Notes under the pieces: generated by a model
The model's database searches: none
The model's input: only the letters and a program-made list of their open reading frames with translations
What the model was told of the DNA's origin: nothing
Position numbers and translations under genes: made by a program
Origin: a virus
IMG/VR virus record: IMGVR_UViG_2556921039_000001
DNA length: 22,482 nt
Direction: 5' to 3' (one strand)
Shown: piece after piece, positions 1 to 18,761 of the stretch
Position numbering within the stretch: the stretch's first letter is position 1
Layout of the letters: each line of letters opens with the position of its first letter

Positions 1-348
1 AGCGGCGTCATCAGCGATTTTCTTTTCATCAACCTGCAGCGGGACAGTACACAGGGGAAGCCGCTTCGCTACGGCAATTACTACGCCATCCTGAAAAGAT
101 GCGCCCAAAGGGCAGGCCTTGACCCTGAGAAAATACGAACGCACAGCGGACGCAGTACAAAGGTGATGGAGTATCTGGAGCGTCAGGCACTCCATCCGGA
201 GGATGGCATCACCGATGCCGTCATTATGGAGAGCTTCGGCTGGCGCTCCGCCGATTCCATCGTCCACTACCGGAACCACAACAATCAGGTCATAGCCAAA
301 GCGGTTATGGAAAAGCTGCACCGGAAGAAAGGTGGCGCCAATGATTAA
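1..348 (+). CDS. Tyrosine recombinase (TnpA-like), C-terminal part; truncated by the window start
   Basis: Frame 1 is open from base 1 (SGVISDFLFINLQRDSTQGKPLRYGNYYAILKRCAQRAGLDPEKIRTHSGRST...) to TAA at 346-348. It contains HxxR (HSGR), FGW at the LG[H/W] position and a candidate catalytic Tyr (IVHY). The ORF track only shows the part from 163. Confidence 0.85.
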   Translation, partial: SGVISDFLFINLQRDSTQGKPLRYGNYYAILKRCAQRAGLDPEKIRTHSGRSTKVMEYLERQALHPEDGITDAVIMESFGWRSADSIVHYRNHNNQVIAKAVMEKLHRKKGGAND

Positions 349-2596
349 ACTGCTTGAGATTAAGACCTGTACCGCCTTTTGGGACATAGACGGGACTGTC
401 CTGCGTTTTCAGAGACGAAAGCGCGTCGATGACGAGCTGACGGGCCGGACGATAGAACGGTACCGGGAACTGCTGCTGAATGAAACCTACAAAAGCTGCC
501 CGCAAATGCTCCGCGACATTGCCTGCATCTTAACGGATAACATTCTGGTACGAATCGGCATTGAGGTGTATCAAAAGCAATTTCTGAAAATGTTTGAGCA
601 CTATTCAAAGCTATATGTCGAGCAGTGGGAACAGGCCGGAAAATGTTTCATCTCCAACAAAACGGCTATGTTTCCTGTTTTCGAGTTCATGTTCCGAAAC
701 AGGCTGGTTGAACAGCCGGATAGTCCGATTACGATCTTGAGAGACATCCCGTGTGACAGCAAGATTTTTTTGAATATCTTTGAGGAATGCTTTTCATCCT
801 TCTGGGTAAACAAGATCAGGGAGAAGGTTCTGGGACAGGAAACGCTTGCCCCCATACGGAAACGAATTGGTCCCCTGCGGATAACACAATACCTCTGCCT
901 TCTGCCGGAGCCGGTCGTCACAGATTATCTTAATTCTATTGCAGGCAGATTTACACGGCAGCGCAGGCTCATCACCACGCAAAGCTTCTGCCACGAATTG
1001 CTTGGCAGCGACACATCCATTTCCAGCCCGCGTTTTCATCCAAGGTTTGTAACACTGGTCGCTGCCGAAGTTCGCCGCGAGTTTGAAATCCAGTGCCAAA
1101 AATTCATTGCTGAAAACCACCTGCAGCTTGATATGTCCAGTGACAAGTGGACGCTGTTCCACAGGCACGGGCCGTCCCTGCACCGGGAAACCATTGATTT
1201 TACAGGAATTCGTTCACCTTCCCTGCGGCTTGAAATCAAGTATTTCATGAAGCACAGATATTACAGCATCACCGCCGACAAAGACCGTGCCATTACTACC
1301 TTAGCGTACGCGGCCAATCTGCTCACAGATAACAATCCAAGTATTCGTTTTTTCGCGGATGTGGATGATGTTGATGTCCGGTCGCTGTACATGAGCATGG
1401 AGCGCAGATATGGACAAACAGCCGGAGGAAAGTCGGTATCCAATATCATGAGGGTTTTCAGCATTTTGTCGGTACTCATGGAATATCTGATGAGCAATCA
1501 TCGGGATGAAGCAATGCGCAGCCCCGTTCCACACGACAACCCCTTTTCCCGTTACCGGTTTCATAACGCAAAGGACTACAAGGTACGGACCGCCGCCATT
1601 CCGGAGGCTGTTGCGGAGCAGATCGATGCGCATCTGGATGAACTTGACCCGGTGCAGGCTCTGCTGTACCGGATTTTCTCTGCCACAGGCATGCGTATGA
1701 AGGAGGTGCTTTTTCTGGAGGCCGACTGTCTGGAACCGTCACAGTATGAGGGTGTTGTCCAACTTAAGTACAAGCAGTACAAAACCCTGACCGCCAGACG
1801 GAAGGCCGGTGTGCCGGATTATCACAGAGTGCTCATCCTGAAAGCATTGGCAGATGAAATCTCCGGACAGATTCACAAAACGAAAGAGTGGCGGAAGGAA
1901 CTTGGCGTGCCGTATCTGTTTGTCAACAAGCGGCCGAATTTTCGGGCCAGCATGATCAGTATGAGCAATTATCTGCTGGTCATCAACAGGCTCATTGAAA
2001 AATATGACCTCCGTGATGAAAACGGCCGGCTATGGCATTTTACCAGCAAACAGCAGCGCAAAACACTGACGGTTACCCTGATTGAAAACGGAGCGTCCGT
2101 GGATGAGCTTGCTTACTGGCTCGGACATCTTAGCAGAAACACTGCCTCAAATTACTACGCCGAAGTCCGGAAAATGAAGCTGGCTGAGCTCAATACAAGC
2201 TTCTTCCGGGAAAAATTCGATCTTCTGCTATCGGATGAACAGCTTGCGGAGTACACAGAGGAAGAACGCAGGCTGTTGTATATGGATTTCCGACTGGAAC
2301 AACGGCGGGTGGAGTTTGGATTCTGCCTGAAAAAGCTGGCCGATGGCGGCTGTACAAGCAGGAGCAGCCTGATCAACTGTGTAAACTGCAAAAATCTTTG
2401 TACAGGACCCAAGTATCTTCCGTACTGGCAGAGTCTCATGAACGGACAGCGCGAGGTTGTGAACAGCCTCCTCGCCGCTTATGCTGAGGCTGGTATTACG
2501 GACTATGAGGAATTCAGAGAATACAGACAGGCAACATTCCTTCTTAACTGCTATGAAAACATTGTAAACGCCATAGAAGGAGGTGCCTCGGTATGA
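341..2596 (+). CDS. Large tyrosine recombinase/integrase (Tn554 TnpB-like) with long N-terminal extension and C-terminal Cys cluster
   Basis: Motifs TGMRMKEV, HFTSKQQRKT (KxxR at the HxxR position) and LGHLSRNTASNYY; C-terminal GFC-x8-C-x8-CxxC. Start moved to ATG 341, which has an RBS (AAAGGTGG) and overlaps the upstream stop as ATGATTAA. Confidence 0.9.
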   Translation: MIKLLEIKTCTAFWDIDGTVLRFQRRKRVDDELTGRTIERYRELLLNETYKSCPQMLRDIACILTDNILVRIGIEVYQKQFLKMFEHYSKLYVEQWEQAGKCFISNKTAMFPVFEFMFRNRLVEQPDSPITILRDIPCDSKIFLNIFEECFSSFWVNKIREKVLGQETLAPIRKRIGPLRITQYLCLLPEPVVTDYLNSIAGRFTRQRRLITTQSFCHELLGSDTSISSPRFHPRFVTLVAAEVRREFEIQCQKFIAENHLQLDMSSDKWTLFHRHGPSLHRETIDFTGIRSPSLRLEIKYFMKHRYYSITADKDRAITTLAYAANLLTDNNPSIRFFADVDDVDVRSLYMSMERRYGQTAGGKSVSNIMRVFSILSVLMEYLMSNHRDEAMRSPVPHDNPFSRYRFHNAKDYKVRTAAIPEAVAEQIDAHLDELDPVQALLYRIFSATGMRMKEVLFLEADCLEPSQYEGVVQLKYKQYKTLTARRKAGVPDYHRVLILKALADEISGQIHKTKEWRKELGVPYLFVNKRPNFRASMISMSNYLLVINRLIEKYDLRDENGRLWHFTSKQQRKTLTVTLIENGASVDELAYWLGHLSRNTASNYYAEVRKMKLAELNTSFFREKFDLLLSDEQLAEYTEEERRLLYMDFRLEQRRVEFGFCLKKLADGGCTSRSSLINCVNCKNLCTGPKYLPYWQSLMNGQREVVNSLLAAYAEAGITDYEEFREYRQATFLLNCYENIVNAIEGGASV

Positions 2597-4128
2597 ATCT
2601 TCCGCAATACAAATACATCGAAAACTACGACGAGCAGCAAAAGAGCCGGTACTTTGCCCTTTTGCCGCAGCTTGGCAGCAATATTCACTTCGATGAGGAC
2701 ACATGGGTGTGTGACAAACGAATGCGAAGTGCGGCGGAGCCGAAGAATTACATGAACATCTACTTTTCTGCCGTTCCATCTGCTTACAAAGAAATGGTGA
2801 AATACTATTCACTCCTGCGGCTGCTGCATGGTGATACGGTCAGAACGATCCGGTCAAGGATAGCCCGTCTGGTTCCATTCTTGAAGTTCCTGGCCGCAGC
2901 CTGCTCGGCCCCCCTGCTTTCGGGCTGTGACATACGGACGGCTTCAAGGCTGAAAGAGCATCTGGATGCATCCAGCCTGGCGGACAGTACCATACGGGAC
3001 ATCTGGCGCGAGGCAGGTTCTCTGTTTCGCATGATGAACGGGTTTGACGGGGTACCCTGCAAAAATCCTTTTGCCTGCAATCCATATGCGCGAGCTGAAA
3101 AGCTGGACTCCAAATATATCCCGGATAAGGTGGCTGAAAAGCTGGACGGTATCTTCCGGCAAGAAGAAATAGATCTGCACATCCGGTGTATTTACTGGCT
3201 GCTGCGGCTCATTCCGTCCCGGATATCCGAAGTGCTGGCCATGGCAATCGACTGCGTAAAGCCGTACAACGGGAATTTCGTTCTCTTTATCCCAACATGG
3301 AAGCAGAACGGAGGCAACATGGAACCGATCCTGCGTTCTGTCCACATTGAGGATACGGGGATTGCCGGATATCTTCTGGATTTGCTTCGGGCACAACAGA
3401 CAGTAGCCGAGAAATTGCAGGAGCATTTGCCTGAAAACAAACGCGGTTGTCTTTTTACCTATCGGAGGGTGCTTCATTACAAAAACGGCACGGCTTCTCA
3501 GCCGGGCAGGGTTCAAAGTGTCTGTCCTGCCGTTGTGGACTACCATTTCAAAAGAATTTGTGAGCAGTACGGCGTCCTGGATGAAAATGGGGAGGTCTAC
3601 AACCTGACATCCCATCAATTCCGCCACAACGGAATTACCGACCGGCTGGAAGCAGGCTTCACGCTGGAACAGATTGCCGACATGACGGGCCACCACGGAA
3701 ACGCCATGATATGGAACGCCTATTCCCATCTGGATTTAAAGCCTAAGACCATCCTGCAAAAGCAGCGGTATGTTTTGAATGAGCCAAAGCCGCCGGATAA
3801 TCCATATATCCTGTTCGGCGGACGAATTCTCCATATGGAGGAAATGCTTGAAAAGCGGCTGCTTAAAAACCTCCGGGCCCATAAGGTTCCGGGAGGCATC
3901 TGCGGCGACGTTACCGGATGCAAAAGCGATATGTGGGATTGTCTTGAGTGCGGGCATTTTATCCCGGACAGAGATCAGCTTTCCTATTTCGAGGAACAAG
4001 CGTCCGCATGGCGCAGCAAAGCAGACCGTTTCTCGGATTTCCCGGCCATTCACGCCAATGCGTTGAGAAACGCGGATTTATTTGAGAGGATCGCAGCCAA
4101 ACTGCTGGGAGGTGAGAAAGATGAATAG
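2593..4128 (+). CDS. Tyrosine recombinase/integrase (second TnpB-like) with C-terminal Cys cluster
   Basis: Motifs PSRISEV, HQFRH and TGHHGNAMIWNAY; C-terminal GIC-x5-C-x6-CLECGHF. ATGA overlap with the upstream gene; RBS GGAGGTG. Confidence 0.92.
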   Translation: MNLPQYKYIENYDEQQKSRYFALLPQLGSNIHFDEDTWVCDKRMRSAAEPKNYMNIYFSAVPSAYKEMVKYYSLLRLLHGDTVRTIRSRIARLVPFLKFLAAACSAPLLSGCDIRTASRLKEHLDASSLADSTIRDIWREAGSLFRMMNGFDGVPCKNPFACNPYARAEKLDSKYIPDKVAEKLDGIFRQEEIDLHIRCIYWLLRLIPSRISEVLAMAIDCVKPYNGNFVLFIPTWKQNGGNMEPILRSVHIEDTGIAGYLLDLLRAQQTVAEKLQEHLPENKRGCLFTYRRVLHYKNGTASQPGRVQSVCPAVVDYHFKRICEQYGVLDENGEVYNLTSHQFRHNGITDRLEAGFTLEQIADMTGHHGNAMIWNAYSHLDLKPKTILQKQRYVLNEPKPPDNPYILFGGRILHMEEMLEKRLLKNLRAHKVPGGICGDVTGCKSDMWDCLECGHFIPDRDQLSYFEEQASAWRSKADRFSDFPAIHANALRNADLFERIAAKLLGGEKDE

Positions 4129-4516
4129 CAAAGTACCCAAGGAGCTTATTGCCCGGCAGGAGCACCAGCGCCAAACCACGGTCAATACTGTCCTGAGAGC
4201 AATTTCAGAGCTTCGGGCCGAAGGGCACAGGCTGACGATTAAGAATCTTATGGACTATACCGGATTGTCGCGGTCTGTTTTCGGCAAAAAGCATATCCGG
4301 GCTGTTTTGGTCAGTCAGGGAATTGTAGCCGCAGAAGCTTGCGGAGCAGAGCGCACGCCGCCTAAATCCACTGTTCAACAACGAATGAAGCAAAAGCTTG
4401 AGGAAAAGGAACAACAGATTCGTCGGCTAACCGAAGAAAATACCGCTTTGAAAAGTGAATGCGAACTGCTAAGGGGCAAGTTGTATCTCCTGATGCAGCG
4501 GCAGTCACTGGAGTAG
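4121..4516 (+). CDS. TnpC/DUF6262-like transposition helper (HTH plus coiled coil)
   Basis: 131 aa from ATG 4121 (RBS GGAGGTGA; ATGAATAG overlap). HTH-like LTIKNLMDYTGLSRSVF followed by a coiled coil (KQKLEEKEQQIRRLTEENTALKSECELLRGKL). Its position after the recombinases matches Tn554 tnpC. Confidence 0.75.
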   Translation: MNSKVPKELIARQEHQRQTTVNTVLRAISELRAEGHRLTIKNLMDYTGLSRSVFGKKHIRAVLVSQGIVAAEACGAERTPPKSTVQQRMKQKLEEKEQQIRRLTEENTALKSECELLRGKLYLLMQRQSLE

Positions 4517-4544
4517 AAAACCGATTCTATTTTCACTGAAATAT

Positions 4545-4684
4545 TTAACACGATTAAACTATGAGGTTTGGTCGTGTTTTTTATTTAAAAATCAAAAATG
4601 AAAGAAGGAATTTATCTTGAAAAACAAGCATATTCAGTTTACCATTCTCGCACCACCGACAACCGCATACTTTAATCGTGTCAA
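4545..4684. repeat. 24-bp imperfect inverted repeat (arms 4545-4568 and 4661-4684); putative recombinase binding sites
   Basis: TTAACACGATTAAACTATGAGGTT versus the reverse complement of the right arm, TTGACACGATTAAAGTATGCGGTT: 21/24 identical, 92-bp spacer. Confidence 0.75.
4547..4586 (+). terminator. Putative intrinsic terminator after the tnpC-like gene
   Basis: AACACGATTAAAC-loop-GTTTGGTCGTGTT (G-U pairs) followed by TTTTATTT; overlaps the left arm of the inverted repeat. Confidence 0.55.
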
Positions 4685-4700
4685 TCGACCGTGCAGAAAA

Positions 4701-4754
4701 GTGCTTCCAACTCTAACGGATCGAATTAAAGAAATGTTCGATTTTCAAGGATAA
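4701..4754 (+). pseudogene. 3' remnant of a Flp-type major pilin gene (DUF6133-like), apparently interrupted by the recombinase element
   Basis: Translates to VLPTLTDRIKEMFDFQG*, matching my recollection of the conserved C-terminus of clostridial ICE Flp-like pilins (...LFGxxVLPTLTxRIKEMFNYxG). The leader and hydrophobic helix are absent, and the downstream Tad cluster lacks a major pilin. Confidence 0.65.
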
Positions 4755-4765
4755 TTCTGTGGTTA

Positions 4766-4803
4766 AACGGTCTATGGAGATGGAGATAACTCTATAGACC
4801 GTT
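4766..4803 (+). promoter_or_regulatory. Stem-loop downstream of the pilin remnant (mRNA stabiliser or attenuator)
   Basis: AACGGTCTATGGAG-10 nt-CTCTATAGACCGTT: 14-bp stem with one G-U pair and no clear U-tract. Confidence 0.55.
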
Positions 4804-4832: not shown

Positions 4833-5666
4833 GTGGAAGTAATATTAGTGTTGCTTATAGCAGGTCTATTGAGTGGGTGTTTAGTTTATGTGAATTCACT
4901 TTTGAACGACTTGGTATCCATTGCTCTTTATGCAGATCGTTATATGGATTCATTACTTGGCACCAGTGGTTTAAGTCAGATATTTGATATTTTCTTCGGG
5001 TTTGGTGTATCTTTAATCGTGCTAAAATTTTTAAAAAAGGGATTTGAGCAATATATTTTGTGGACCGAAGGTGATGCAGATACTGAACCATTAATCCTTC
5101 TTACAGGGTTCTTTAAAGCTTTAGCCATAGCTGTTTCTTTTCCAACACTTTATGGATGGTTAGCTGAGATTATTGAGGATTTAACTGATCAGCTGATTGC
5201 TGTTATCAGTAATAGTATGGAGACAGATTTTACAGCAGTGATTACTGGTATTTCAAGTGCAGGATTATTTACGGCAATTATTTCTCTCATATTTTTCATA
5301 TGCTTTTTTCTTTTGTATCTTCAGTTTCTTACAAGGGGACTGGAGATTTTTATTTTGAGAGTCGGATTACCACTGGCTTGTGTTGGTTTAATGGATGCCG
5401 ATAAAGGTGTTTTCAGGACTTATATACAGAAATTTTTTCAATCAACTTTAGCAGTACTTGTGCAGATAGTATTAGCTAAAATGGGGGTAGCTCTTATGCT
5501 TAATACTCATGTTTTATGGGGGATTGCTGCATTACTACTTGCACTTAGAACGCCAAGATTTTTACAAGAATTTATTATTGTATCCGGTGGACATGGTGGA
5601 GGAATGGGAACAGTTTATCAATCAGTAAGGCTTGTGCAGATTGCAAAATCAACTTTCAAGAAATAG
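4833..5666 (+). CDS. Conjugal transfer polytopic membrane protein, TrbL/VirB6-like (DUF6102-like)
   Basis: 277 aa with multiple TM helices; segment RGLEIFILRVGLPLACVGLMDADKGVFRTYIQKFFQ is typical of Gram-positive VirB6/TrbL proteins; GTG start with RBS GGGAGGTG. Confidence 0.75.
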   Translation: MEVILVLLIAGLLSGCLVYVNSLLNDLVSIALYADRYMDSLLGTSGLSQIFDIFFGFGVSLIVLKFLKKGFEQYILWTEGDADTEPLILLTGFFKALAIAVSFPTLYGWLAEIIEDLTDQLIAVISNSMETDFTAVITGISSAGLFTAIISLIFFICFFLLYLQFLTRGLEIFILRVGLPLACVGLMDADKGVFRTYIQKFFQSTLAVLVQIVLAKMGVALMLNTHVLWGIAALLLALRTPRFLQEFIIVSGGHGGGMGTVYQSVRLVQIAKSTFKK

Positions 5667-7065: not shown

Positions 7066-10000
7066 ATGGTTAATATAGATTTTCCAAATATAAGGAAGCA
7101 TGACGGAAGTCAAGATAAAGGATTTGAAGAATTAGTTTGTCAGCTTGCTCATCTAAAACCACCAGATAATGCTCAATATTTTGTTAGAAAAGAGGGCGAT
7201 GGCGGTGACGCAGGTGTTGAATGTTATTGGAAATTAAATGATGAAACAGAACATGCATGGCAAGCAAAATACTTTTTGAATGTTATGACTGACAGTCAAT
7301 GGAGTCAAATTTCCAAATCAGTTGAGACTGCATTGGAGAAGCACCCTAAACTGACAAAGTATTATATTTGCTTACCTAGGGATTGGACAGACAGCCGGAA
7401 GACAGTTAAAGGAAAAACTGTTAACTCTTCGTGGGATAAGTGGGTTGAACATGTAAAGTCATGGGAAGAATTAGCCAGTAAAAAGGGAATGAAAGTTAAA
7501 TTTGAATATTGGTGCAAGCATGAAATAAGCCAAATGTTGCAAGTAGACAAACCGGAATTTGCAGGAAGAGCACTCTATTGGTTTAATGAACCAATTATCA
7601 GTACTGAAATTCTTTTGAGAATCGCACAAAAATCAAAAGAAACATTAGGAGAACGATTTACACCTGAATTTCATGTTGAACTTCCAATTGCTAATAAATT
7701 TGATTGTTTAGGATTAACAAATAGATGGAAAAAACAACTTAGGGGTCAATGCAATATTATAAGTGAGATTAGTGAGGAGTACAAAAGGATATTTAAACAT
7801 AGAATTGATTCATTTAGTGATAAAACTATTTGGAATAAGTTAAATGAAAATATTGAAGAATTCTATAGTGAATTCTTGTCTACTGTATATAGAGGAGAGA
7901 TTTTTCAAAGCATTGATAGATTAGTTAGCCTCACTGAAACTATATATAAAGAAGTAAATAGTTGCAATGAAACTATTTTTGAAGCTTCATATAAGGAAAA
8001 TGACACTGAATTAAAAAAGAAATTGCAAGAAATATCATATGATTTACGTAAAATATCTAAAAAAATAGATGATATCAATGACTTTTTAAATGATAAAGCC
8101 ATTTCTGCTGGAAAAAATAAATCAATGTTACTATTAGGTGAAGCTGGTATTGGAAAGTCACACTTATTGTGTGATATATCCTTGAAAAGACTTGATGAAG
8201 GCTTTCCAACTTTGTTTTTATTAGGGCAACATTATTTAGGAGGTAATCCACTTGACTTCATATGTTCTGAGTTAGGGTTACCAAAATATCCATATCGAAC
8301 TGTTTTAGGAGCTTTAGATTCTTTGGGTGAAAGCAAAGATACAAGATTATTAATAGTAATCGATGCAATAAATGAAGGAATTAATAGAGAAGCTTGGCAT
8401 GATAATATCATACAATTTTTAACTGAACTTGAAGATTATCAACACATTGCAGTTGTTTTGAGTTGTAGAAGTACATACAAAGATTATTTAATACCAGAAA
8501 ATGATAATAAACTAGTTGAAATAGAACATTATGGGTTTCGCGGATATGAGCATAGAGCTGCATTTAAGTATTTGGCAAAACAAGGAATTTCAAAACCGGG
8601 CACCCCCATCCTAACCCCTGAATTTACGAATCCATTATTTCTAAAAACATGTTGTAAAGCTATAAAGGGAATGGGAGAAAATAAATTTCCTAAAGGTCTA
8701 AATGGTTTCAATAAATTATATGAATTTTACATTGAAAGTGCTGAACGAGTTATTAGCAGAAAGAAAAGATATAGAAGTAGTGAACATATTGTGGTAGAAG
8801 CAATTAGGAGATTTGTAAGTGAATTATATCCAGATTATATATCGGGGTTACCCATTCGTGAAGCTAGAGAGATAATAACGAAAATAGATCCCAAACCTAA
8901 TATTGGAGAAAGTCTTTTTGAATTGCTCATTGACGAAGGTGTACTTGCTTTTGACGTAATACCCAGTCATGTTGAAAAAGAACGGGGAATTGAGGTTGTT
9001 AGATTTACATATGAGCGTTTTAGTGATTATGCAATAGCAATGTATATAATAGAAAATTGTGCAACAGAAGAAGATATAGGTAAATTATTTTTGCCAGATG
9101 GTACAATTGGAAAAATAATTAATGAAAATAACAAGTATAAATACAGTGGAATAATTGAGGCATTAGGAATTAGTATTCCTGAGAAATTTAATAAAGAGTT
9201 TCTTGAATTTATGGAATTTGATGATGAAGAAGAATATGAATATAATTGGTTTTTTGAAAAAACATTTACAAATGTAATTTTATGGAGAACAGGCAAATCA
9301 GTTACTGAAAAATCACTTGAGATGCTTAATAAAGTACAGCATTATAGCTATAACAATCAGTCTTTAGATATTCTTTTGGCATTATCAACTGAGCCTGAAC
9401 ATCCATGGAATGCAGATTTTTTAGATGCAAATTTAAGTAGGATGGATATGCCAAAAAGAGATGCCTTTTGGTCTACTTATGTTGCAATAAATGATCATTC
9501 TGAAAATGAATATGGCGAAGAAACTGTTGTAAGAACATTAATTGACTGGTCATTGAATGCTGAATTGGAAGAAGTAGAATTAGAGAGGTTACGATTGACA
9601 GCAGTTGTTTTACTATGGATGACAACGACATCTAATAGAAAAGTACGTGATCAAGCCACTAAATCATTAGCCCGTGTGTTATATCATATTCCTCAACACA
9701 TAGTGAGTTTTATAGAAAAATTTAATAACTGTGATGATGTTTATCTTGTAGAAAGGCTTTATGCATCCATTTATGGTGTGGTTGTACATTTAGATAGTAA
9801 TCTAATTATTAAAGATGTATCGGTTTGTGTATATAATCATCAATTTAAAGATTACAGGCCATATCCTGATATCTTATTGAGAGATTATGCAAGAGGAATA
9901 ATGGAATTTGCATATCACAAAAATCTTTTAAATGATGTTCTGGATAATCCCGAAATATTTAGACCACCTTATTTTAGTGATTGGCCTATAGAAAATCCGT

Positions 10001-12099: not shown

Positions 12100-12366
12100 A
12101 TGAAAGAAGAAATGATGAAATACAAATTGGCAGGAAACTTAGAAACCACAATCTCAGGAAAGTACATTTACACCCTACTCAGTGAATTGGCAAATGAAAG
12201 CGGAGAAGTTCAAATACCGGTCGGTAAAATCAGCAGAACACTTAAGATTGGCAAGAATACGGTAAGGAGAAATTTACACAGGCTTGAGGAAGCCGGATAT
12301 ATTCATATTAGGTCTGTGTATCGTGAGGATGGCGGTCGGGCTGCCAACATATATATCATTAAATGA
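12100..12366 (+). CDS. Small winged-HTH DNA-binding protein
   Basis: KISRTLKIGKNTVRRNLHRLEEAGYI plus wing REDGGRAANIY; start likely ATG 12100 (GGTGA upstream); ATGA overlap with the next gene. Confidence 0.75.
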   Translation: MKEEMMKYKLAGNLETTISGKYIYTLLSELANESGEVQIPVGKISRTLKIGKNTVRRNLHRLEEAGYIHIRSVYREDGGRAANIYIIK

Positions 12367-12932
12367 TGAATATGTTAACATGGCTGATAATTGCCTTGGT
12401 AATGGGCATTTTAACAGATATTTTGCTGATGTATCTGTTACAGCAAAAACAATATCCGTTTTCAGTAATATTGAGTGTTATCGCAATGCTGGCTCTTTTT
12501 AAGACCTTTGGTGAAGAAATAATCATCATCAAAGGTTTTTTGTTTGCCCAAATACTAATCTTTGCCGGTTGCTATGATGCAAAGACAAAAATCATTCCCG
12601 ATATGGTCCACATTTTTATATTGATCATAGGTCTGATTAACTTTTCGCCGGTACAGTCCCTGGCAGGTATTTTAATTGTACCTATTCCCTACATGATAAC
12701 TGCCATTATAAAGCCGAAAGGCATTGGCGGTGGGGATATAAAACTGATGGCAGCCAGCGGATTCTTACTTGCCATTAAAGGAGGCTTCACTGCAAGTATT
12801 ATCGGACTTGTATTGGCTGTGATTGTAAACGGAGTATATTACAAAATCAAAGCCAAGGATAAAAATATTTCTTTTGCTCTTGCACCCTATTTATCAATCG
12901 GGTGTTTTATTGCATACCTTAAAATAATGTAA
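12363..12932 (+). CDS. A24 family prepilin peptidase (CpaA/TadV-like)
   Basis: Polytopic membrane protein with both catalytic Asp motifs (YDAKTKIIPD and GIGGGDIKL) and C-terminal LAPYLSIG; no methyltransferase Cys domain. Confidence 0.9.
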   Translation: MMNMLTWLIIALVMGILTDILLMYLLQQKQYPFSVILSVIAMLALFKTFGEEIIIIKGFLFAQILIFAGCYDAKTKIIPDMVHIFILIIGLINFSPVQSLAGILIVPIPYMITAIIKPKGIGGGDIKLMAASGFLLAIKGGFTASIIGLVLAVIVNGVYYKIKAKDKNISFALAPYLSIGCFIAYLKIM

Positions 12933-12946
12933 TGGAGGTTGTTTCA

Positions 12947-13762
12947 ATGAAGAATATTTTGAGAAACAGAACAGTATTAGGTCTTACATGCATCGTGTTG
13001 TCGCTGATTATCTGTTTTGCCTTAACGCCAATGTTTAATAAGGCGTTACAGGCCAAAACAGAAGTAGTAAGAATAACAAAAGACGTTTCAAAAGGTGAAT
13101 TGATAACCAATGCACAAGTGGAAGTCGTAGAAGTCGGCAGATATAACCTGCCCGGATCAGTGCTGAAAAACAAGGATAATGTAGTCGGCAAATATGCAAA
13201 AGCAGATTTATTCAAAGGTGACTATGTACTAAATACAAAGGTTTCTGATAATGCATTAGCGGAAAATGAATACTTATATGAGTTTAATGGAGCACAAAGA
13301 GCCATATCAGTAACTATTAAATCCTTTGCTACAGGTTTATCCGGGAAGCTTGAAAAAGGGGATATAGTATCCATTATTGCAGTTGATTACGGAGAATTCA
13401 GAGAAACGGTTGTACCTGTTGAACTTCAATACGTTAAGGTTCTTGCGGTAACTAATAATCAAGGCTTAGATAAAACCAGTCATATGACAGGCGAAGAAGG
13501 GGAACTGCCTTCTACTGTAACATTAGCTGTTAACCCAACACAAGCAAGACTGCTTGCAGAACTTGAAGAAAAAAGTAAAATACATTTTACTTTGGTTTAC
13601 AGGGGAAGCCAAGAAAATGCACAAAAATTTTTGGATGAGCAGGAGGGAGTTATTAATAGGATTTTGCATCCCGAATTAGAAGCAGACGATAAATCAGAGG
13701 ATAATCTCGTGTCCGGGCTAGAATCTGAAAAAACGGAGGGAGAAATAATCAATGAAGAATAA
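12947..13762 (+). CDS. cpaB: Flp pilus assembly protein CpaB/RcpC (SAF domain)
   Basis: N-terminal TM; SAF-like VVRITKDVSKGELIT...VVGKYA; RcpC-like RAISVTI...GLSGKLEKGDIVSII...VKVLAV...TVTLAV. Start ATG 12947 with RBS GGAGG. Confidence 0.85.
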   Translation: MKNILRNRTVLGLTCIVLSLIICFALTPMFNKALQAKTEVVRITKDVSKGELITNAQVEVVEVGRYNLPGSVLKNKDNVVGKYAKADLFKGDYVLNTKVSDNALAENEYLYEFNGAQRAISVTIKSFATGLSGKLEKGDIVSIIAVDYGEFRETVVPVELQYVKVLAVTNNQGLDKTSHMTGEEGELPSTVTLAVNPTQARLLAELEEKSKIHFTLVYRGSQENAQKFLDEQEGVINRILHPELEADDKSEDNLVSGLESEKTEGEIINEE

Positions 13763-14603
13763 TCAAATAATTGCAGTTTGGGGTAATCCATCGTCAGGAA
13801 AAACAGTTACAAGTATTAAGATGGCCAGAGAACTAGCTTTAAAAAAGAAAAATGTCATACTGGTGTTCTGTGATACTATTGCTCCTGATTTAATGATGGT
13901 GCTTCCAGATAAAAATACAGATGAAAAGTCTTTGGGGAGCTTACTTTCGGCTCCAGAAATTACTCAAGAAAAGATTTTATCGAAATGTATTACACTGGAC
14001 AAAAATGAGTATATTAGCCTGCTTGGATACTCACAGGGGGAAAATAGCTTTACTTATGCTAAATATGCTAAAGACAGAGCAGTAGATTTATTAATACTTT
14101 TACGTCATATTGCAGATTATGTAGTAGTTGATTGTTCGGCGTTTTTCATTTCTGATCTGCTTTCAGTAACTGCCATTGAATTAGCGGACAGTGTGATTCG
14201 TTTATCAAATTGTAATTTAAAGGCATTGTCCTATTTCAATTCATCCCTGCCCCTGCTTGCTGACAGACGCTTTAATACAGACAGGCATATCAAAGTGCTG
14301 TCTAAAGTAAAAGCAGATGAACCCAGTGAGCTGATGGCAGAAAAATATAATGGGGTTATGTATGAACTGCCTTATATAGAGGAAATTGTAGAACAGTATT
14401 TAACCGGACGGTTGTTTGGAACCCTTGAATCAAAGCAGAGTATCAAATATACGCAAACAATTCAACAGATAATTACTTCTGTATTGAATAAAAACTTGGA
14501 AGTGAAACAAGAACCAAAACCTGCTAAAACAAAAAAAATAAAAGAGGCAGGAGCTTCATTTTTAGATAAAGTCTTGATGGGCATGAGAGGAGGCAGGTCA
14601 TGA
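13752..14603 (+). CDS. ParA/MinD-like ATPase (CpaE/TadZ-like)
   Basis: IIAVWGNPSSGKT Walker A lacking the ParA signature Lys; DYVVVDC; lies between cpaB and cpaF. Confidence 0.75.
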   Translation: MKNNQIIAVWGNPSSGKTVTSIKMARELALKKKNVILVFCDTIAPDLMMVLPDKNTDEKSLGSLLSAPEITQEKILSKCITLDKNEYISLLGYSQGENSFTYAKYAKDRAVDLLILLRHIADYVVVDCSAFFISDLLSVTAIELADSVIRLSNCNLKALSYFNSSLPLLADRRFNTDRHIKVLSKVKADEPSELMAEKYNGVMYELPYIEEIVEQYLTGRLFGTLESKQSIKYTQTIQQIITSVLNKNLEVKQEPKPAKTKKIKEAGASFLDKVLMGMRGGRS

Positions 14604-15964
14604 ACAATGCGGCAATATTTTTCAATACAGGGCAGAATATAAAGCAGTTTGCCGACATACTTCAGGAAGTTCAAGAGTATATTTCAAGCAAATATTCTAC
14701 CCTTATATCCAGTAACCCAAAAGAGCAGCGGGAGCAGATCAAATCATATATTGCAAAATATCTGATGGACTATTCTCTTGGGGTAGAAGGACTGTCCTTC
14801 GATGAGCTTGTAGAAAAATTATACTCAGAGATGGCAGAGTTTTCATTCCTGACAAAATATCTGTTTAGAAATGATATAGAAGAAATCAATATCAACCATT
14901 GGAGAGACATTAAAATAACCTACACCAATGGTCAAATACTGCCTGCAAAAGAAAAATTCAATTCGCCTTCCCATGCCATTGATGTAATAAGGCGGCTGCT
15001 TCATAAATCCGGGATGATATTAGATAACTCACAGCCTATTGTAAGAGGTCATTTATCAAATAAAATCAGAATAACCGTGTTCGGCAATGGTATTATTGAT
15101 GAGGACAGCGGTGTTGCCGCATCCATCCGTATTGTCAATCCGCAAAAGTTAACCAAAGAAGATTTTATTAGGCATGGTACAGCAACAGAAGAAATGCTTG
15201 ATTTTTTAAGTATTTGCCTTAGATACGGTTTAAGCATGTGTGTTACTGGTGCAACCAGTTCCGGGAAAACCACTTTGATGAGCTGGCTGTTATCCACCAT
15301 CCCTGACGATAAGCGTATCTTTACTATAGAAAACGGTACACGGGAATTTAACCTCGTTAAAGAAGATGAAAAGGGTAATATCATCAATAATGTGGTGCAT
15401 ACCGTTACTCGTTACAGTGAGGATAAAAGACAAAATATCGATCAGGAAAAACTTCTTGAAAGTGCATTGACAGCAAATCCGGACTATATATGTGTTGCGG
15501 AAATGAAAGGGGATGAATCTTTTGCAGCCCAGGAAGCGGCAAGAACCGGACATGCAGTCATAACAACCACTCATGCAAATAGCTGTGAAGCAACATATTT
15601 CAGAATAGTAACGCTATGTAAAATGAAATATGATATTAATGATGATACCTTGTATTCATTGGTTACAGAAGCCTTTCCAATTGTCCTGTTTTCTAAAAAA
15701 CTTGAAGATAACTCAAGAAAAATAATGGAAATAACAGAGTGTGAAATTATGCCCGATGGAAGAAGGCAGCTTCACACTCTTTTTCGTTTTAATATTAAAG
15801 AAAACAAAGCCGTAGATGGAAAGCTAAAGATAATCGGAAATTATAAGAAAGTAAACAACCTATCAAAGAGCCTGCAAAAAAGGCTGCTTGAAAATGGTAT
15901 GCCTTTAACCATATTAGAGCAGTTACTACTCCAAGAGGAAGGAAAGGAAGGTGAAATGAAGTGA
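14600..15964 (+). CDS. cpaF: Pilus assembly ATPase CpaF/TadA (VirB11 family)
   Basis: Walker A GATSSGKTT; Asp box RIFTIENGTRE; Walker B YICVAEMKG; His box TGHAVITTTHANS. Confidence 0.9.
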   Translation: MNNAAIFFNTGQNIKQFADILQEVQEYISSKYSTLISSNPKEQREQIKSYIAKYLMDYSLGVEGLSFDELVEKLYSEMAEFSFLTKYLFRNDIEEININHWRDIKITYTNGQILPAKEKFNSPSHAIDVIRRLLHKSGMILDNSQPIVRGHLSNKIRITVFGNGIIDEDSGVAASIRIVNPQKLTKEDFIRHGTATEEMLDFLSICLRYGLSMCVTGATSSGKTTLMSWLLSTIPDDKRIFTIENGTREFNLVKEDEKGNIINNVVHTVTRYSEDKRQNIDQEKLLESALTANPDYICVAEMKGDESFAAQEAARTGHAVITTTHANSCEATYFRIVTLCKMKYDINDDTLYSLVTEAFPIVLFSKKLEDNSRKIMEITECEIMPDGRRQLHTLFRFNIKENKAVDGKLKIIGNYKKVNNLSKSLQKRLLENGMPLTILEQLLLQEEGKEGEMK

Positions 15965-16902
15965 CCTTATTAAATCTAATTGCATTCTTAGGGCTTGTGG
16001 CAGGTAGCTTTATACTCCTTTCCTTATCACCCTTTGAATTTGCAGAAGCTCTGTCAAAACCCTTTAAAGAGAATAAGAAAACCATAAAATCAAGGGTTAA
16101 AGAAGCTATAAATAAGAAGAAGCCAAAAGGGTTGAAACTTCTAGTAAAAGAGACCAAGGAAATTCTAGAAGCTACTGATAAGAGTAATCAGTTTTCAAGC
16201 TTATGTATAGCATCTTTTGCTTTATTTATTTTGGGTGTAATGATAGCAATATCCATGAATAACTTCTTTTTAATTCCAGTACTTGCTGGAGGATTTTCGC
16301 TCATACCCTTTTGGTATATTAAATTTACAGCTACATTTTACAAGAAACAGTTAAATGCAGAGCTTGAAACAGCACTTTCTGTAATTACTACATCCTATCT
16401 AAGAAGTGAAAGTATTATCACAGCAGTTGACGAAAATGTAGCTTATATTAATCCACCGGTTGCAGATGTTTTTAAGAGCTTTTTGACACAAACAAAGCTT
16501 ATCAATTCAAATATTAAAATGGCTCTGGAAAATTTAAAGCTAAAAATAGATAATGATGTATTCAGGGAATGGGTAGATACTGTTATTGTTTGCCAAGAGG
16601 ACAAAAACTTAAAAAATACCTTAAATCCAATCGTATCGAAACTTTCAGATATGCGCATTGTGGGAGCGGAGCTGGATTATTTGCTTTATGAGCCCATGAA
16701 AGAGTTTATCACCATGACAATACTTCTTGTAGGAAATATTCCACTGATGTATTTCTTGAATAAATCCTGGTATGAAACCTTGATGTATACAGCTATAGGT
16801 AAAGCAATACTGGCAATATGTGCCATGGCAATATTTATCTCTTTGGCAGCGGTGATTAAACTGACCAAACCTGTTGAATATCGGAAAGTCCAACAAGATT
16901 AA
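15961..16902 (+). CDS. tadB: TadB-like inner membrane platform protein (T2SS-F fold)
   Basis: TM-cytoplasmic-TM layout (LETALSVITTSY...C-terminal TM pair); follows cpaF with a GTGA overlap. Confidence 0.7.
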   Translation: MTLLNLIAFLGLVAGSFILLSLSPFEFAEALSKPFKENKKTIKSRVKEAINKKKPKGLKLLVKETKEILEATDKSNQFSSLCIASFALFILGVMIAISMNNFFLIPVLAGGFSLIPFWYIKFTATFYKKQLNAELETALSVITTSYLRSESIITAVDENVAYINPPVADVFKSFLTQTKLINSNIKMALENLKLKIDNDVFREWVDTVIVCQEDKNLKNTLNPIVSKLSDMRIVGAELDYLLYEPMKEFITMTILLVGNIPLMYFLNKSWYETLMYTAIGKAILAICAMAIFISLAAVIKLTKPVEYRKVQQD

Positions 16903-16921
16903 AGGGAATGGAGGTGACAAG

Positions 16922-17794
16922 GTGTTAGGTATATTAATTGCTTTTATGTGTTTTTTTTCTTTTGGGTCCTATATGGTTATGGCAGATTTAGTGAAACTAC
17001 CAACCTATCAAGCTTCTAAAGCAATTTTAAATGTAAGCAGACGTCAAAAGAAAAAAGCAAAGAACTTTGATGTATGGGTAATAGATATATCAACGAAGCT
17101 AGCTAAATTTATTAAAATCAATGCTTACAAGAAGCGGAAAATGATTACCAGCTTAAAGTCAGCACAGATAAATTTATCCCCGGAAACCTATATAGCAAAA
17201 GCCTTTGTGAAAGCAGGTCTTATACTACTGAGTATAATTCCTGCTTTATTAATTTTACCAATAATCAGTCCCATAATATTATTTTTAAGTATTGCGGTAT
17301 ATTTCAAGGAAATAGGAAGGGCAGAAGAAGCTGTTAAAAAGCAGAAAGAAGAAATTGAATACGAATTGCCTAGATTTGCATCTACCCTTACTCAAGAGCT
17401 AAAGGCAAGTAGAGATGTCTTATCAATTTTAGAAACCTATAAAAAGAGTGCAGGGAAAAGCATGAAAAAAGAATTGGAAATAACAGTTGCAGATATGAAA
17501 TCTGGCAGTTATGAAGCGGCTCTTACAAGGTTTGAAACAAGACTTGGAAGCTCATCTTTATCCGAGGTTGTAAGAGGATTAATTGGGGTAATTCGTGGAG
17601 ATAACTCGGTAGTATATTTTCAAATGCTATCCCATGACCTAAAACAGCTGGAACTGCAAAGGCTTAAAACTATAGCTGCCAAACAACCTGCAAAAATAAG
17701 AAAGTATTCCTTTGCCATGCTTTTATGCTTTATATTTATGTATCTTGCTGTAATGGGTGTTGAAATCGTTAAAACCCTTGGAGATATGTTTTAG
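16922..17794 (+). CDS. tadC: TadC-like inner membrane platform protein
   Basis: IEYELPRF...YEAALTRFETR, C-terminal TM; start likely GTG 16922 (RBS GGAGGTGA). Confidence 0.7.
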   Translation: MLGILIAFMCFFSFGSYMVMADLVKLPTYQASKAILNVSRRQKKKAKNFDVWVIDISTKLAKFIKINAYKKRKMITSLKSAQINLSPETYIAKAFVKAGLILLSIIPALLILPIISPIILFLSIAVYFKEIGRAEEAVKKQKEEIEYELPRFASTLTQELKASRDVLSILETYKKSAGKSMKKELEITVADMKSGSYEAALTRFETRLGSSSLSEVVRGLIGVIRGDNSVVYFQMLSHDLKQLELQRLKTIAAKQPAKIRKYSFAMLLCFIFMYLAVMGVEIVKTLGDMF

Positions 17795-17799
17795 GGGAG

Positions 17800-18216
17800 G
17801 TGGGAATTTTGAAAAATTTAATAAAATCCAAACGAGGCGAAGGATACATTGATACAGTTGTTATCGTAATATCAGCTATGTTAGTAATTGCCCTTGCAGT
17901 AAAAATATTTCCTGTATTTATCGTCAAAAACCAATTAAACACTGTTGCAAATGAGCTATGTAGAGAAGCTCAGATTACAGGCCGCATCGGAACTGAAGTA
18001 ACTAAAAAAGCACAAGATTTAACAGAACAAACCGGACTTAATCCTGATATTTCATGGGAAGCTGCTTATATCAGTGGAACAAATAAAATTCAATTAAATA
18101 ATGAAATGACTGTAACCGTAACACAAACTGTAGATATAGGCTTTTTTAGCTTCGGTTCTTTTCCTATTGAACTTACTTCAAAGGCAAAGGGAAGGAGTGA
18201 AGTCTATTGGAAATGA
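17800..18216 (+). CDS. TadE-like pseudopilin (DUF4320-like)
   Basis: Class III signal peptide: basic leader KSKRG|EGYIDT followed by a hydrophobic helix; C-terminal GRSEVYWK. Confidence 0.75.
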   Translation: MGILKNLIKSKRGEGYIDTVVIVISAMLVIALAVKIFPVFIVKNQLNTVANELCREAQITGRIGTEVTKKAQDLTEQTGLNPDISWEAAYISGTNKIQLNNEMTVTVTQTVDIGFFSFGSFPIELTSKAKGRSEVYWK

Positions 18217-18761
18217 CAAAAGTAAGAAGGTTATTGAAGGAGAAAAAAGGAAATGCCCTTCCCTTGGCTTGTGCTATAGTTATGTCATTGATCCTTATAT
18301 TTAGTGCTGCGAGTGAATACATGAGGCTTCAAATAATTGCAAAGGGTGTTAGAGATGCTCTGCAAACTGCTGTTATTTCAGTAGCCACAGAAAACTACGA
18401 CAATTTATATAACGGACTTCGTGAAGGCTATAGTGGAGGATACTATTTATCTGATTCAGATCAGTGGCAAAGCCAATTGGATACAGGGGATGTATATACT
18501 GAACTTGACAGTTTGCTTGGTCTTGAAACCGAAGGTATATATCATATTAAAACAACTGGGGGAGAAATGGAATTTAGGCTGTCAAATCTTAATGTTAATC
18601 TTAAAAATACTCCCTTTGCCCCATCTAATATAGAAAATGTTCAAAGGTTTGAAGCAGAAGCCTTTATAATCCTTGAAGTGCCATTATCCTTTGGGTGGAA
18701 TAAACTACCACCTTTAAAAACAAATTTGAAGGTTTTAGCAGGATATACGTCGAAATTTTAA
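18213..18761 (+). CDS. TadE/TadG-like minor pilin
   Basis: Basic leader KEKKG|NALPLAC followed by a hydrophobic helix; ATGA overlap with the upstream pseudopilin. Confidence 0.65.
   Translation: MTKVRRLLKEKKGNALPLACAIVMSLILIFSAASEYMRLQIIAKGVRDALQTAVISVATENYDNLYNGLREGYSGGYYLSDSDQWQSQLDTGDVYTELDSLLGLETEGIYHIKTTGGEMEFRLSNLNVNLKNTPFAPSNIENVQRFEAEAFIILEVPLSFGWNKLPPLKTNLKVLAGYTSKF

Follow-up and report, generated by a model that had tools for sequence, protein, structure and literature searches.

What is a block of tyrosine recombinase genes doing directly upstream of the type IV secretion system (T4SS) genes of an integrative and conjugative element (ICE), and has its arrival cost that ICE its pilus? 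The question is raised by a 22,482-nucleotide stretch of DNA (IMG/VR record IMGVR_UViG_2556921039_000001; the window), which corresponds to positions 2-22483 of contig C11 in a genome of 24 contigs and starts at the contig end, inside the first recombinase gene. The initial annotation proposed that a recombinase element had inserted into the major pilin gene of the ICE, and that it either shuts down the pilus or allows piliation only after excision. The insertion and its target specificity are established by the data below. From these we infer its functional consequence, which is likely to be replacement of the pilin rather than its loss, judging from the genes that the element carries.

A site-specific element within a DUF6133 gene

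Window positions 1-4700 are the right-hand 4.7 kb of an approximately 6.0-kb site-specific integrative element. Positions 1-4516 code for four proteins, all on the plus strand: the C-terminus of a tyrosine recombinase, two more recombinases of 754 and 511 residues, and a 144-residue DUF6262 protein. Non-coding DNA lies between the DUF6262 gene and a short frame at 4701-4754. Recombinase 1 (1-348; Pfam Phage_integrase) is TnpA-like and is represented by its 3′ end, as the contig end cuts the gene; its translation shows an HxxR...W...Y motif, the complete copy has 388 residues, and BLASTP against the TnpA of a Tn558-type module (L015) gives an E value of 2e-9. Recombinase 2 (332-2596, 754 residues; Phage_integrase, E 3.8e-12) is a large TnpB-like enzyme, 23% identical to the TnpB of the same module (E 2e-17), with the C-terminal Cys cluster included in the match. 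Recombinase 3 (2593-4128, 511 residues; Phage_integrase) is a second TnpB-like enzyme (E 5e-13 against TnpB) that retains R..HxxRH..H..Y, and recombinases 2 and 3 are paralogues (E 1e-12); in both, the similarity to TnpB extends to its Cys-rich tail. The 144-residue protein (4082-4516; Pfam DUF6262, E 1.2e-17) is TnpC-like. The tnpC gene of the Tn558-type module is annotated as encoding a DUF6262 family protein, and DUF6262 has been equated with TnpC (PMC11947258); pairwise BLAST between the 144-residue protein and the TnpC of that module gave no significant match, so the link rests on the common Pfam family.

The right end of the element is marked by a terminal inverted repeat at 4671-4700 on the plus strand (…AATCGTGT…ACCGTGCAGAAAA). 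Position 4700 is the last element base, at which identity with the two other copies in the genome and with relatives stops. The repeat mirrors the left end, TTTTCTTCACGGT…ACACGAT. Together, the ends make up an imperfect inverted repeat, TTTTCT(T/G)CACGGT … ACACGAT; in the circle its 13-bp arms flank a 6-bp spacer. By eye, no convincing half-site common to attB and the element ends was found. A terminator-like hairpin with a T-run (4547-4578, plus strand) lies 3′ of the tnpC-like gene and could render the insertion polar on the downstream T4SS genes. It holds AACACGAT-type subterminal motifs, the clustering of which at both element ends is suggestive; over the whole locus, the frequency of this motif is not above chance. 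A promoter scan returned one weak outward match, at chance level, facing the T4SS genes (4617-4645, TTGAAA-17-TACCAT). A 45-residue open reading frame (4617-4754) with a TTG start at 4617 preceded by GAAGGA runs from the right end of the element into the pilin remnant. It was considered as a fusion product and rejected, given that this region is not conserved among relatives.

The features that the initial annotation read directly beyond the element are all present. The frame at 4701-4754 translates as VLPTLTDRIKEMFDFQG* and is followed by a stem-loop (4766-4803, plus strand; -24.1 kcal/mol, z = -5.5) and by the TrbL_4/VirB6-like T4SS gene (4833-5666, plus strand; Pfam TrbL_4, E 1.7e-117), the first gene downstream of the pilin gene. 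The 45-residue frame without its stop (4617-4751) matches positions 49-65 of the 65-position Pfam DUF6133 profile with an E value of 2.2e-4, below the cut-off. Elsewhere in the genome, three 5′ fragments cover profile positions 4-50, 6-50, and 8-50 (E 1.5e-10 to 5e-20), so that the profile ranges of the 5′ fragments and the window peptide are exactly complementary. When the halves are joined, each of the three products can be aligned gap-free with an intact DUF6133 gene. The element thus sits in the DUF6133 pilin gene of the ICE, as had been proposed.

As the contig breaks off within the element, the window lacks the left junction, for which all contigs of the genome were searched. On contig C12, this search located the 5′ portion of the gene interrupted by the window copy, which encodes the anticipated basic leader, G|EGFID motif, and hydrophobic helix. 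Joining the halves yields an intact open reading frame: the C12 fragment through …QDTIL followed by PTLTDRIKEMFDFQG (window 4707-4751) is identical to a natural 76-residue protein, P0006, identified by database search. The public contig that encodes P0006 (L016) carries the uninterrupted gene between both flanks. Identity is 100% over 5147 bp of the C12 flank, as far as …GACACTATTTTG, and over 2133 bp of the window, starting at 4707 (CCAACTCTAACGG…); L016 contains the stem-loop, which is thus part of the ICE, and shares the downstream gene order of the window (TrbL_4, 69-residue, and 258-residue genes). Since L016 is identical to both flanks, the inserted DNA ends at 4706 and the hexamer GTGCTT at 4701-4706 is extra. 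The reading of 4701-4754 as the end of the pilin therefore holds from 4707 onward, where native pilin DNA restarts with CCA (Pro): the native 3′ end (4707-4754, plus strand) comprises 15 codons and the stop and is 100% identical to L016. The six bases before it are an imported core or footprint, coding for V-L in the pilin frame and missing from L016. The native core ATTTTG (I-L), which L016 contains once, stays at the left junction on C12. There is no target duplication; recombination takes place at this 6-bp core, which encodes V/I-L and lies 15 codons before the stop.

The same arrangement is found at each insertion. Outside each left end lies a 5′ gene part that encodes a basic leader, a hydrophobic helix, and the motif G|EGF(I/V)D or G|QGTLD; its frame departs from the pilin after T-(V/I)-L and continues into a tail supplied by the element, FSSRYKHDRKCYA*. 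Outside each right end the sequence reads V-L-P-T-(L/I)-…-MF-(N/D)-(Y/F)-x-G*. The truncated resident pilin retains leader and helix and acquires a 13-residue tail. It might still be made, and may interfere with or even function in the pilus. The tail includes 14 invariant nucleotides, third codon positions among them, which points to a constraint at the DNA level, such as binding sites, rather than to a selected peptide.

Copies, cores, and mobility of the element

BLAST identified three copies of the element in the genome, each in a different DUF6133 gene and at the same codon, with flanks that diverge directly outside the element ends. One copy is complete, with both junctions on contig C2 (about 246172-252181). 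The window copy is split between C12 (left 1254 bp) and the window, and the remaining copy between C17 (left 1254 bp) and the start of C2; the presence of three copies caused the assembly to break within recombinase 1. Synteny with loci that hold both flanks backs this pairing of contigs, as does L016. The two split copies are 99.97% identical (one difference in 3651 bases and none in 1253), and both differ from the complete copy by about 5.4%. The genome holds three related Tad-bearing ICE regions of differing GC content, and the element occupies the pilin genes of all three. DUF6133 was found in none of the four relatives of the host within its GTDB class (five genomes).

Left and right 6-bp cores are unequal within most insertions. 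In Tn554 and SE elements, 6 bp of the donor left junction are carried to the new right junction (PMC10214605), and GInts make 6-nt staggered cuts and have unequal attL and attR (PMC5385486). The right core of the window copy, GTGCTT, equals the left core of the C17 copy. By the Tn554/SE rule, the right cores of the present element would be copied from the donor left junction; a candidate donor has been matched to a single copy, that of the window. The most likely origin of that copy is transposition, inside the genome, from the C17/C2-start copy; the footprint would match by chance with an estimated probability of a few percent, because the cores are limited to V/I-L codons.

Evidence for mobility was obtained by placing contigs from four metagenome runs (four studies) on the complete C2 copy. 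All four runs contain a joint that skips exactly 6012 bp and gives GGT ACA GTG CTG CCG ACA, the core at this empty site being the left-junction core, and in two of them (X1 and X4) flank depth is several-fold above element depth. The empty site that the initial annotation had suggested looking for is thus present in these four runs and in L016, and two of the three sites in the genome are covered by empty-site contigs. The empty site is an intact open reading frame, and the resident gene would thus be regained upon excision; the sites found empty may be alleles that were never occupied rather than products of excision. One run contains a joint from right end to left end (one contig, depth about 5), and the element therefore circularizes or forms tandems. 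The core in this joint is GTGCTG, which is also the sequence of the left core of the C2 copy. In run X2 the C2 site is empty and the element lies in another pilin gene; because the right core of that insertion is unseen, the joint is compatible with either a left- or a right-core origin.

A search of species-representative genomes with recombinase 2 returned eight loci (62-95% identity) in Oscillospiraceae, Eubacteriaceae, Candidatus Petromonas, and other Bacillota metagenome-assembled genomes. Using a DUF6133 HMM built from seeds, these loci read 5′ fragment (HMM 1-72), intact DUF6133, recombinases, 3′ fragment (HMM 70-87), with the exception of one locus cut by a contig end and one that is rearranged. 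Their junction sequences are superimposable, and seven relatives have both junctions on one contig. In a phylum sample of 400 random genomes, DUF6133 was found in 14 besides the source genome; one of these (G236) has the gene interrupted likewise, at a contig end, and in another (G348) the ICE is truncated at the element target spot. The layout therefore recurs in nine other genomes (the eight loci and G236), and DUF6133 is the target in 12 of 12 loci. Among the best 120 database relatives of the C12 fragment, at least 38 clusters join diverse pilin N-termini to the element tail at the same fusion residue. Since the insertion falls in the same DUF6133 codon in every case examined, the proposal that the element targets a conserved pilin sequence on conjugative elements was right.

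Several of these loci have individual features. In G348 (L021:4468-4794, contig C2), DUF6133 is intact to …GETVLP, after which unrelated sequence begins and the ICE ends; the housekeeping genes serS and serA lie within 7 kb, and the deletion breakpoint coincides with the target site. One ICE (L022:3577-3900 and 8242-8484; G270:C34) has a pair of intact DUF6133 genes separated by 4.3 kb; the second immediately precedes the tad operon, and no recombinases of the element family lie between the two. A degraded relative (L014:8854-12266) has recombinases 1 and 2 each broken into two open reading frames, and keeps the element-borne DUF6133 gene and both junctions. Near-identical element/ICE sequence (L004:7000-15200) occurs in 20 public runs from 14 studies, labelled wastewater, soil, marine sediment, subsurface, activated sludge, and shale gas. 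A variant frequent in two of the public runs has 20 different bases instead of the 84 bp between the left end and the element-borne DUF6133 gene.

In larger relatives, cargo genes either follow tnpC or precede recombinase 1. In the first position, one locus (L008:14334-21098) has a defence-like set of AAA_21 and RloB-like genes, two unknown genes, and a DEAD/ResIII helicase. In the second, between the element-borne DUF6133 gene and recombinase 1, another (L010:5708-8534) has an ArsR regulator, a cation-efflux protein, and a LysM-G5-M23 peptidase. With such defence and metal-resistance cargo, the element family also moves accessory genes onto ICEs.

Resident and element-borne putative pilins

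The Tad cluster of the window spans 12363-18761. It comprises, on the plus strand, genes with Pfam matches to a prepilin peptidase (A24), CpaB, TadZ/CpaE-like, TadA/CpaF, TadB, and TadC proteins (12363-17794), followed by a DUF4320 pseudopilin (17800-18216) whose leader, KRG|EGYID, carries the same motif as that of DUF6133, KG|EGFID. An HMM scan of the whole genome found no other DUF6133 gene in the window, and a weak match at the N-terminus of the DUF4320 pseudopilin; the cluster lacks an intact major pilin gene, as had been noted. In five loci (C17/C2-start, L007, L010, L014, and L022), DUF6133 lies directly upstream of A24-cpaB-tadZ-tadA-tadB-tadC-DUF4320, which is the flp position. In the window, T4SS and cargo genes come between it and the Tad block. 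All 25 sequences aligned (20 ICE-borne and five element-borne) share the G|EGF(I/V)D motif and a hydrophobic stretch of 20 residues, in agreement with Flp-type major pilins, which are short prepilins marked by Gly at -1, a basic leader, an acidic +5 residue, and a hydrophobic helix. The leader motif G|EG(F/Y)ID is also that of the DUF4320 pseudopilin of the same operon. An AlphaFold model of the pilin consists of a leader helix and one long helix (pLDDT 81); a fold search with this model against the PDB gave no match, and is uninformative because the protein is small and helical. The pilin matches Pfam DUF6133 (PF19629) alone, with no match to Flp_Fap (G-XXXXEY motif) even at E values up to 10. 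Literature searches returned nothing on DUF6133 or DUF4320, and nothing specific on Tad/Flp pilins in clostridial conjugative elements. From gene position, leader motif, and model, we infer that DUF6133 is the 76-residue Flp-like prepilin of the Tad-type pilus of the ICE, in which case it would serve the machinery encoded at 12363-17794. A separate Tad-type locus of the genome (G000:C5:238900-241500; L018) has three tandem mini-pilin genes with the leader …G|DQMTGW. These belong to no Pfam family, have weak similarity to DUF6133, and adjoin a DUF4320 pseudopilin and a TadC-like gene; none of the three is interrupted.

The element carries a spare. Just inside its left end, between that end and recombinase 1, lies a full-length DUF6133 paralogue, approximately 165 bp downstream of the truncated resident gene and in the same orientation. 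It is present and intact in all three copies and all relatives examined, and the element-borne genes are the only intact DUF6133 genes of the genome. Its dN/dS is 0.17-0.30 where measurable and elsewhere pN is 0.18-0.43 against a pS of 0.78-0.90; among diverged elements, synonymous sites are saturated and the protein is conserved. By these substitution patterns the spare pilin is under purifying selection. Such an element-borne full-length DUF6133 paralogue in every element is the new feature of this family.

Alignment shows the mature helix to be near invariant between ICE-borne and element-borne pilins. Around the core and in the C-terminal segment, the element-borne pilins form a sequence type of their own, unlike the ICE-borne ones, and they are 49-59% identical to the native pilin of the window. 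Directly after the core, 19 of the 20 ICE-borne pilins have P-T-L and the remaining one (P0084) H-T-L, so that Thr is found in 20 of 20; in the five element-borne pilins this position is E, Q, L, or M. Without a Thr codon there, the spare copy may be shielded from targeting.

A further locus (L013:5200-5540) has the 5′ part of a resident pilin (about 80% identical to the flank of L012) in frame with an element-borne 3′ part (98% identical to L012), and the left end of the element is gone. This chimera resembles the outcome of homologous recombination between the two tandem paralogues, an event that would fix the element at its site and leave a single, chimeric, intact pilin gene behind. The fusion into one intact gene suggests that resident and spare pilin are interchangeable.

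The reading that best accommodates these observations is that the element inserts at a fixed pilin codon, uses the ICE as its carrier, and brings a spare pilin that takes the place of the one it truncates. As a whole we consider this explanation probable. As the target gene is exclusive to conjugative elements, the element would ride along with the ICE. The spare DUF6133, co-oriented with the ICE operon, would supply the pilin that the insertion truncates and would be made, processed, and assembled by the resident Tad machinery, and the carrier would stay pilus- and transfer-proficient. Replacement is in keeping with an element whose spread relies on the ICE that carries it.

It is interesting to speculate on a broader version, for which we would claim only a modest chance: a widespread family that breaks and replaces its target, whose own pilin, having lost the Thr codon, can no longer be targeted, and which remodels the mating pilus of its carrier to its own advantage in recipient range, phage sensitivity, or exclusion. 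A related and rather unlikely reading is that the pilin swap is no neutral repair but as such benefits the element, by altering recipient range, escaping pilus-specific phages, or bypassing exclusion, by analogy with SGI1 (PMC5704250). The distinct type and limited identity of the element-borne pilins are compatible with such remodelling, as is the defence cargo (AAA_21 with RloB, and the helicase) of some relatives; however, avoidance of self-targeting explains the differences near the core equally well, and the mature helix is almost the same in both pilin types.

The suggestion of the initial annotation that the insertion removes the major pilin, so that the pilus is lost or is made only after excision in the manner of skin in sigK, has fared less well and is now unlikely. 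The resident gene is indeed cut 15 codons before its stop, precise removal gives an intact open reading frame, and a circle or tandem joint exists. However, every element has the full-length paralogue under apparent purifying selection a short distance downstream of the truncated gene, no developmental or regulatory tie to excision was seen, and the L013 fusion suggests that the two pilins can stand in for each other. A skin/sigK-type switch has no other functional copy of its gene, and here a functional-looking spare is always present. That no insertion took place, the recombinase block and split pilin being an ancestral ICE layout or an assembly artefact of the contig end inside recombinase 1, is refuted by the empty-site contigs, and both junctions lie on one contig in the complete C2 copy and in the seven relatives.

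Comparison with known integrative elements

By gene content, the element appears to be of the Tn554/GInt/SE kind, with a TnpA-like and two TnpB-like recombinases, a TnpC-like DUF6262 protein, and no transfer genes. Members of the Tn554 family (Tn554, Tn558, and Tn6188, from Staphylococcus, Enterococcus, and Listeria) likewise encode TnpA- and TnpB-like tyrosine recombinases and TnpC (DUF6262) in one operon. They share with the present element strict site and orientation specificity, the absence of a target duplication, imperfect terminal inverted repeats, and a 6-bp core of variable sequence, with a footprint from the donor at one of the junctions. However, they have two recombinases, whereas here the TnpB-like gene is duplicated to give three, and the identity between the recombinases is only 19-23%. 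The targets also differ: Tn554 inserts into radC (att554), and the present element into an ICE-borne pilin gene, of which it has its own copy aboard. Its hosts, unlike those of the Tn554 family, are anaerobic Bacillota from environmental samples.

GInts (ginABCD genomic islands; PMC5385486) and SEs (strand-biased circularizing integrative elements; PMC10214605) resemble the element in several ways: they encode three recombinase-type proteins together with a small protein like TnpC, make staggered cuts of 6 nt, have attL and attR sites that are not identical, exist in a circular form, carry cargo of variable size, and lack transfer genes. They also often insert close to the 3′ end of a gene and alter the C-terminus that it encodes. 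Of the GInt-type features, the operon layout, a circle or tandem joint, and unequal 6-bp cores at the two junctions are present here. GinC and Tfp are without the catalytic Arg and Tyr residues, whereas all three recombinases here keep them; in the alignment of recombinase 3 to TnpB, the R, HxxRH, H, and Y are kept, unlike in GinC, for which absence of the first catalytic Arg is described, the GInts being compared by description. Searches for the SE families GmtY, GmtX, GmtZ, and VPA1267 gave only sub-threshold NCBIfam matches (GmtY 28.9 bits, cut-off 340; VPA1267 17.3, cut-off 90). Unlike GInts and SEs, the element has a minimal form nearly without cargo, a target on a conjugative element, and a spare target gene. 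The finding extends the multi-recombinase transposons (Tn554, GInt, SE), which are poorly understood, to environmental anaerobic Bacillota, and the natural occupied, empty, and circle junctions, with a donor-recipient pair in one genome, bear on the mechanism of the 6-bp footprint.

The carrier appears to be an LGI1-like Gram-positive ICE. LGI1 of Listeria combines a T4SS with cpa/tad genes (PMC2834635) and, like the carrier here, has VirD4, VirB6-like, NlpC/P60, and cpa/tad pilus genes in one transfer region. LGI1 corresponds to the host type of ICE, not to the inserted element; its four recombinase loci were considered as relatives of the element and rejected, since serine recombinases are described for them (PMC2834635). 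The natural pilin swap offers a handle on whether Tad pili take part in mating, and DUF6133 and DUF4320 are given a testable role as putative major pilin and pseudopilin of Tad pili in Gram-positive ICEs.

Hitchhiking on ICEs by insertion into their genes has precedent. Integrative mobilizable elements (IMEs) such as IMESp2907 and Tn6104 insert into maff2-like, SNF2, and traG genes of Tn5252-superfamily ICEs (PMC5704250). As here, these are small, target a conserved ICE gene, travel along with the ICE, and disrupt a gene beside the conjugation genes. In contrast, they have serine recombinases and relaxase/oriT mobilization modules, and the present element has no mobilization genes: the minimal 6-kb form encodes only the pilin, three recombinases, and TnpC, with no relaxase of its own. 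None of these IMEs has been reported with a full copy of the gene it disrupts. A target gene found only on conjugative elements, combined with a spare copy of it, would thus be a new way of hitchhiking for a non-transmissible element, and with the spare aboard the carrier would not be crippled.

The closest parallel to such a swap is SGI1, which exchanges the mating-pair subunits TraN, TraG, and TraH of IncC plasmids for its own (PMC5704250). In both cases the hitchhiker brings its own version of a part of the helper transfer apparatus. SGI1 is chromosomal and leaves the helper genes uninterrupted, whereas here the swap is physically coupled to disruption of the resident gene. If the tentative break-and-replace family is real, it would be a Gram-positive counterpart of the subunit swapping of SGI1, hard-wired into the integration site.
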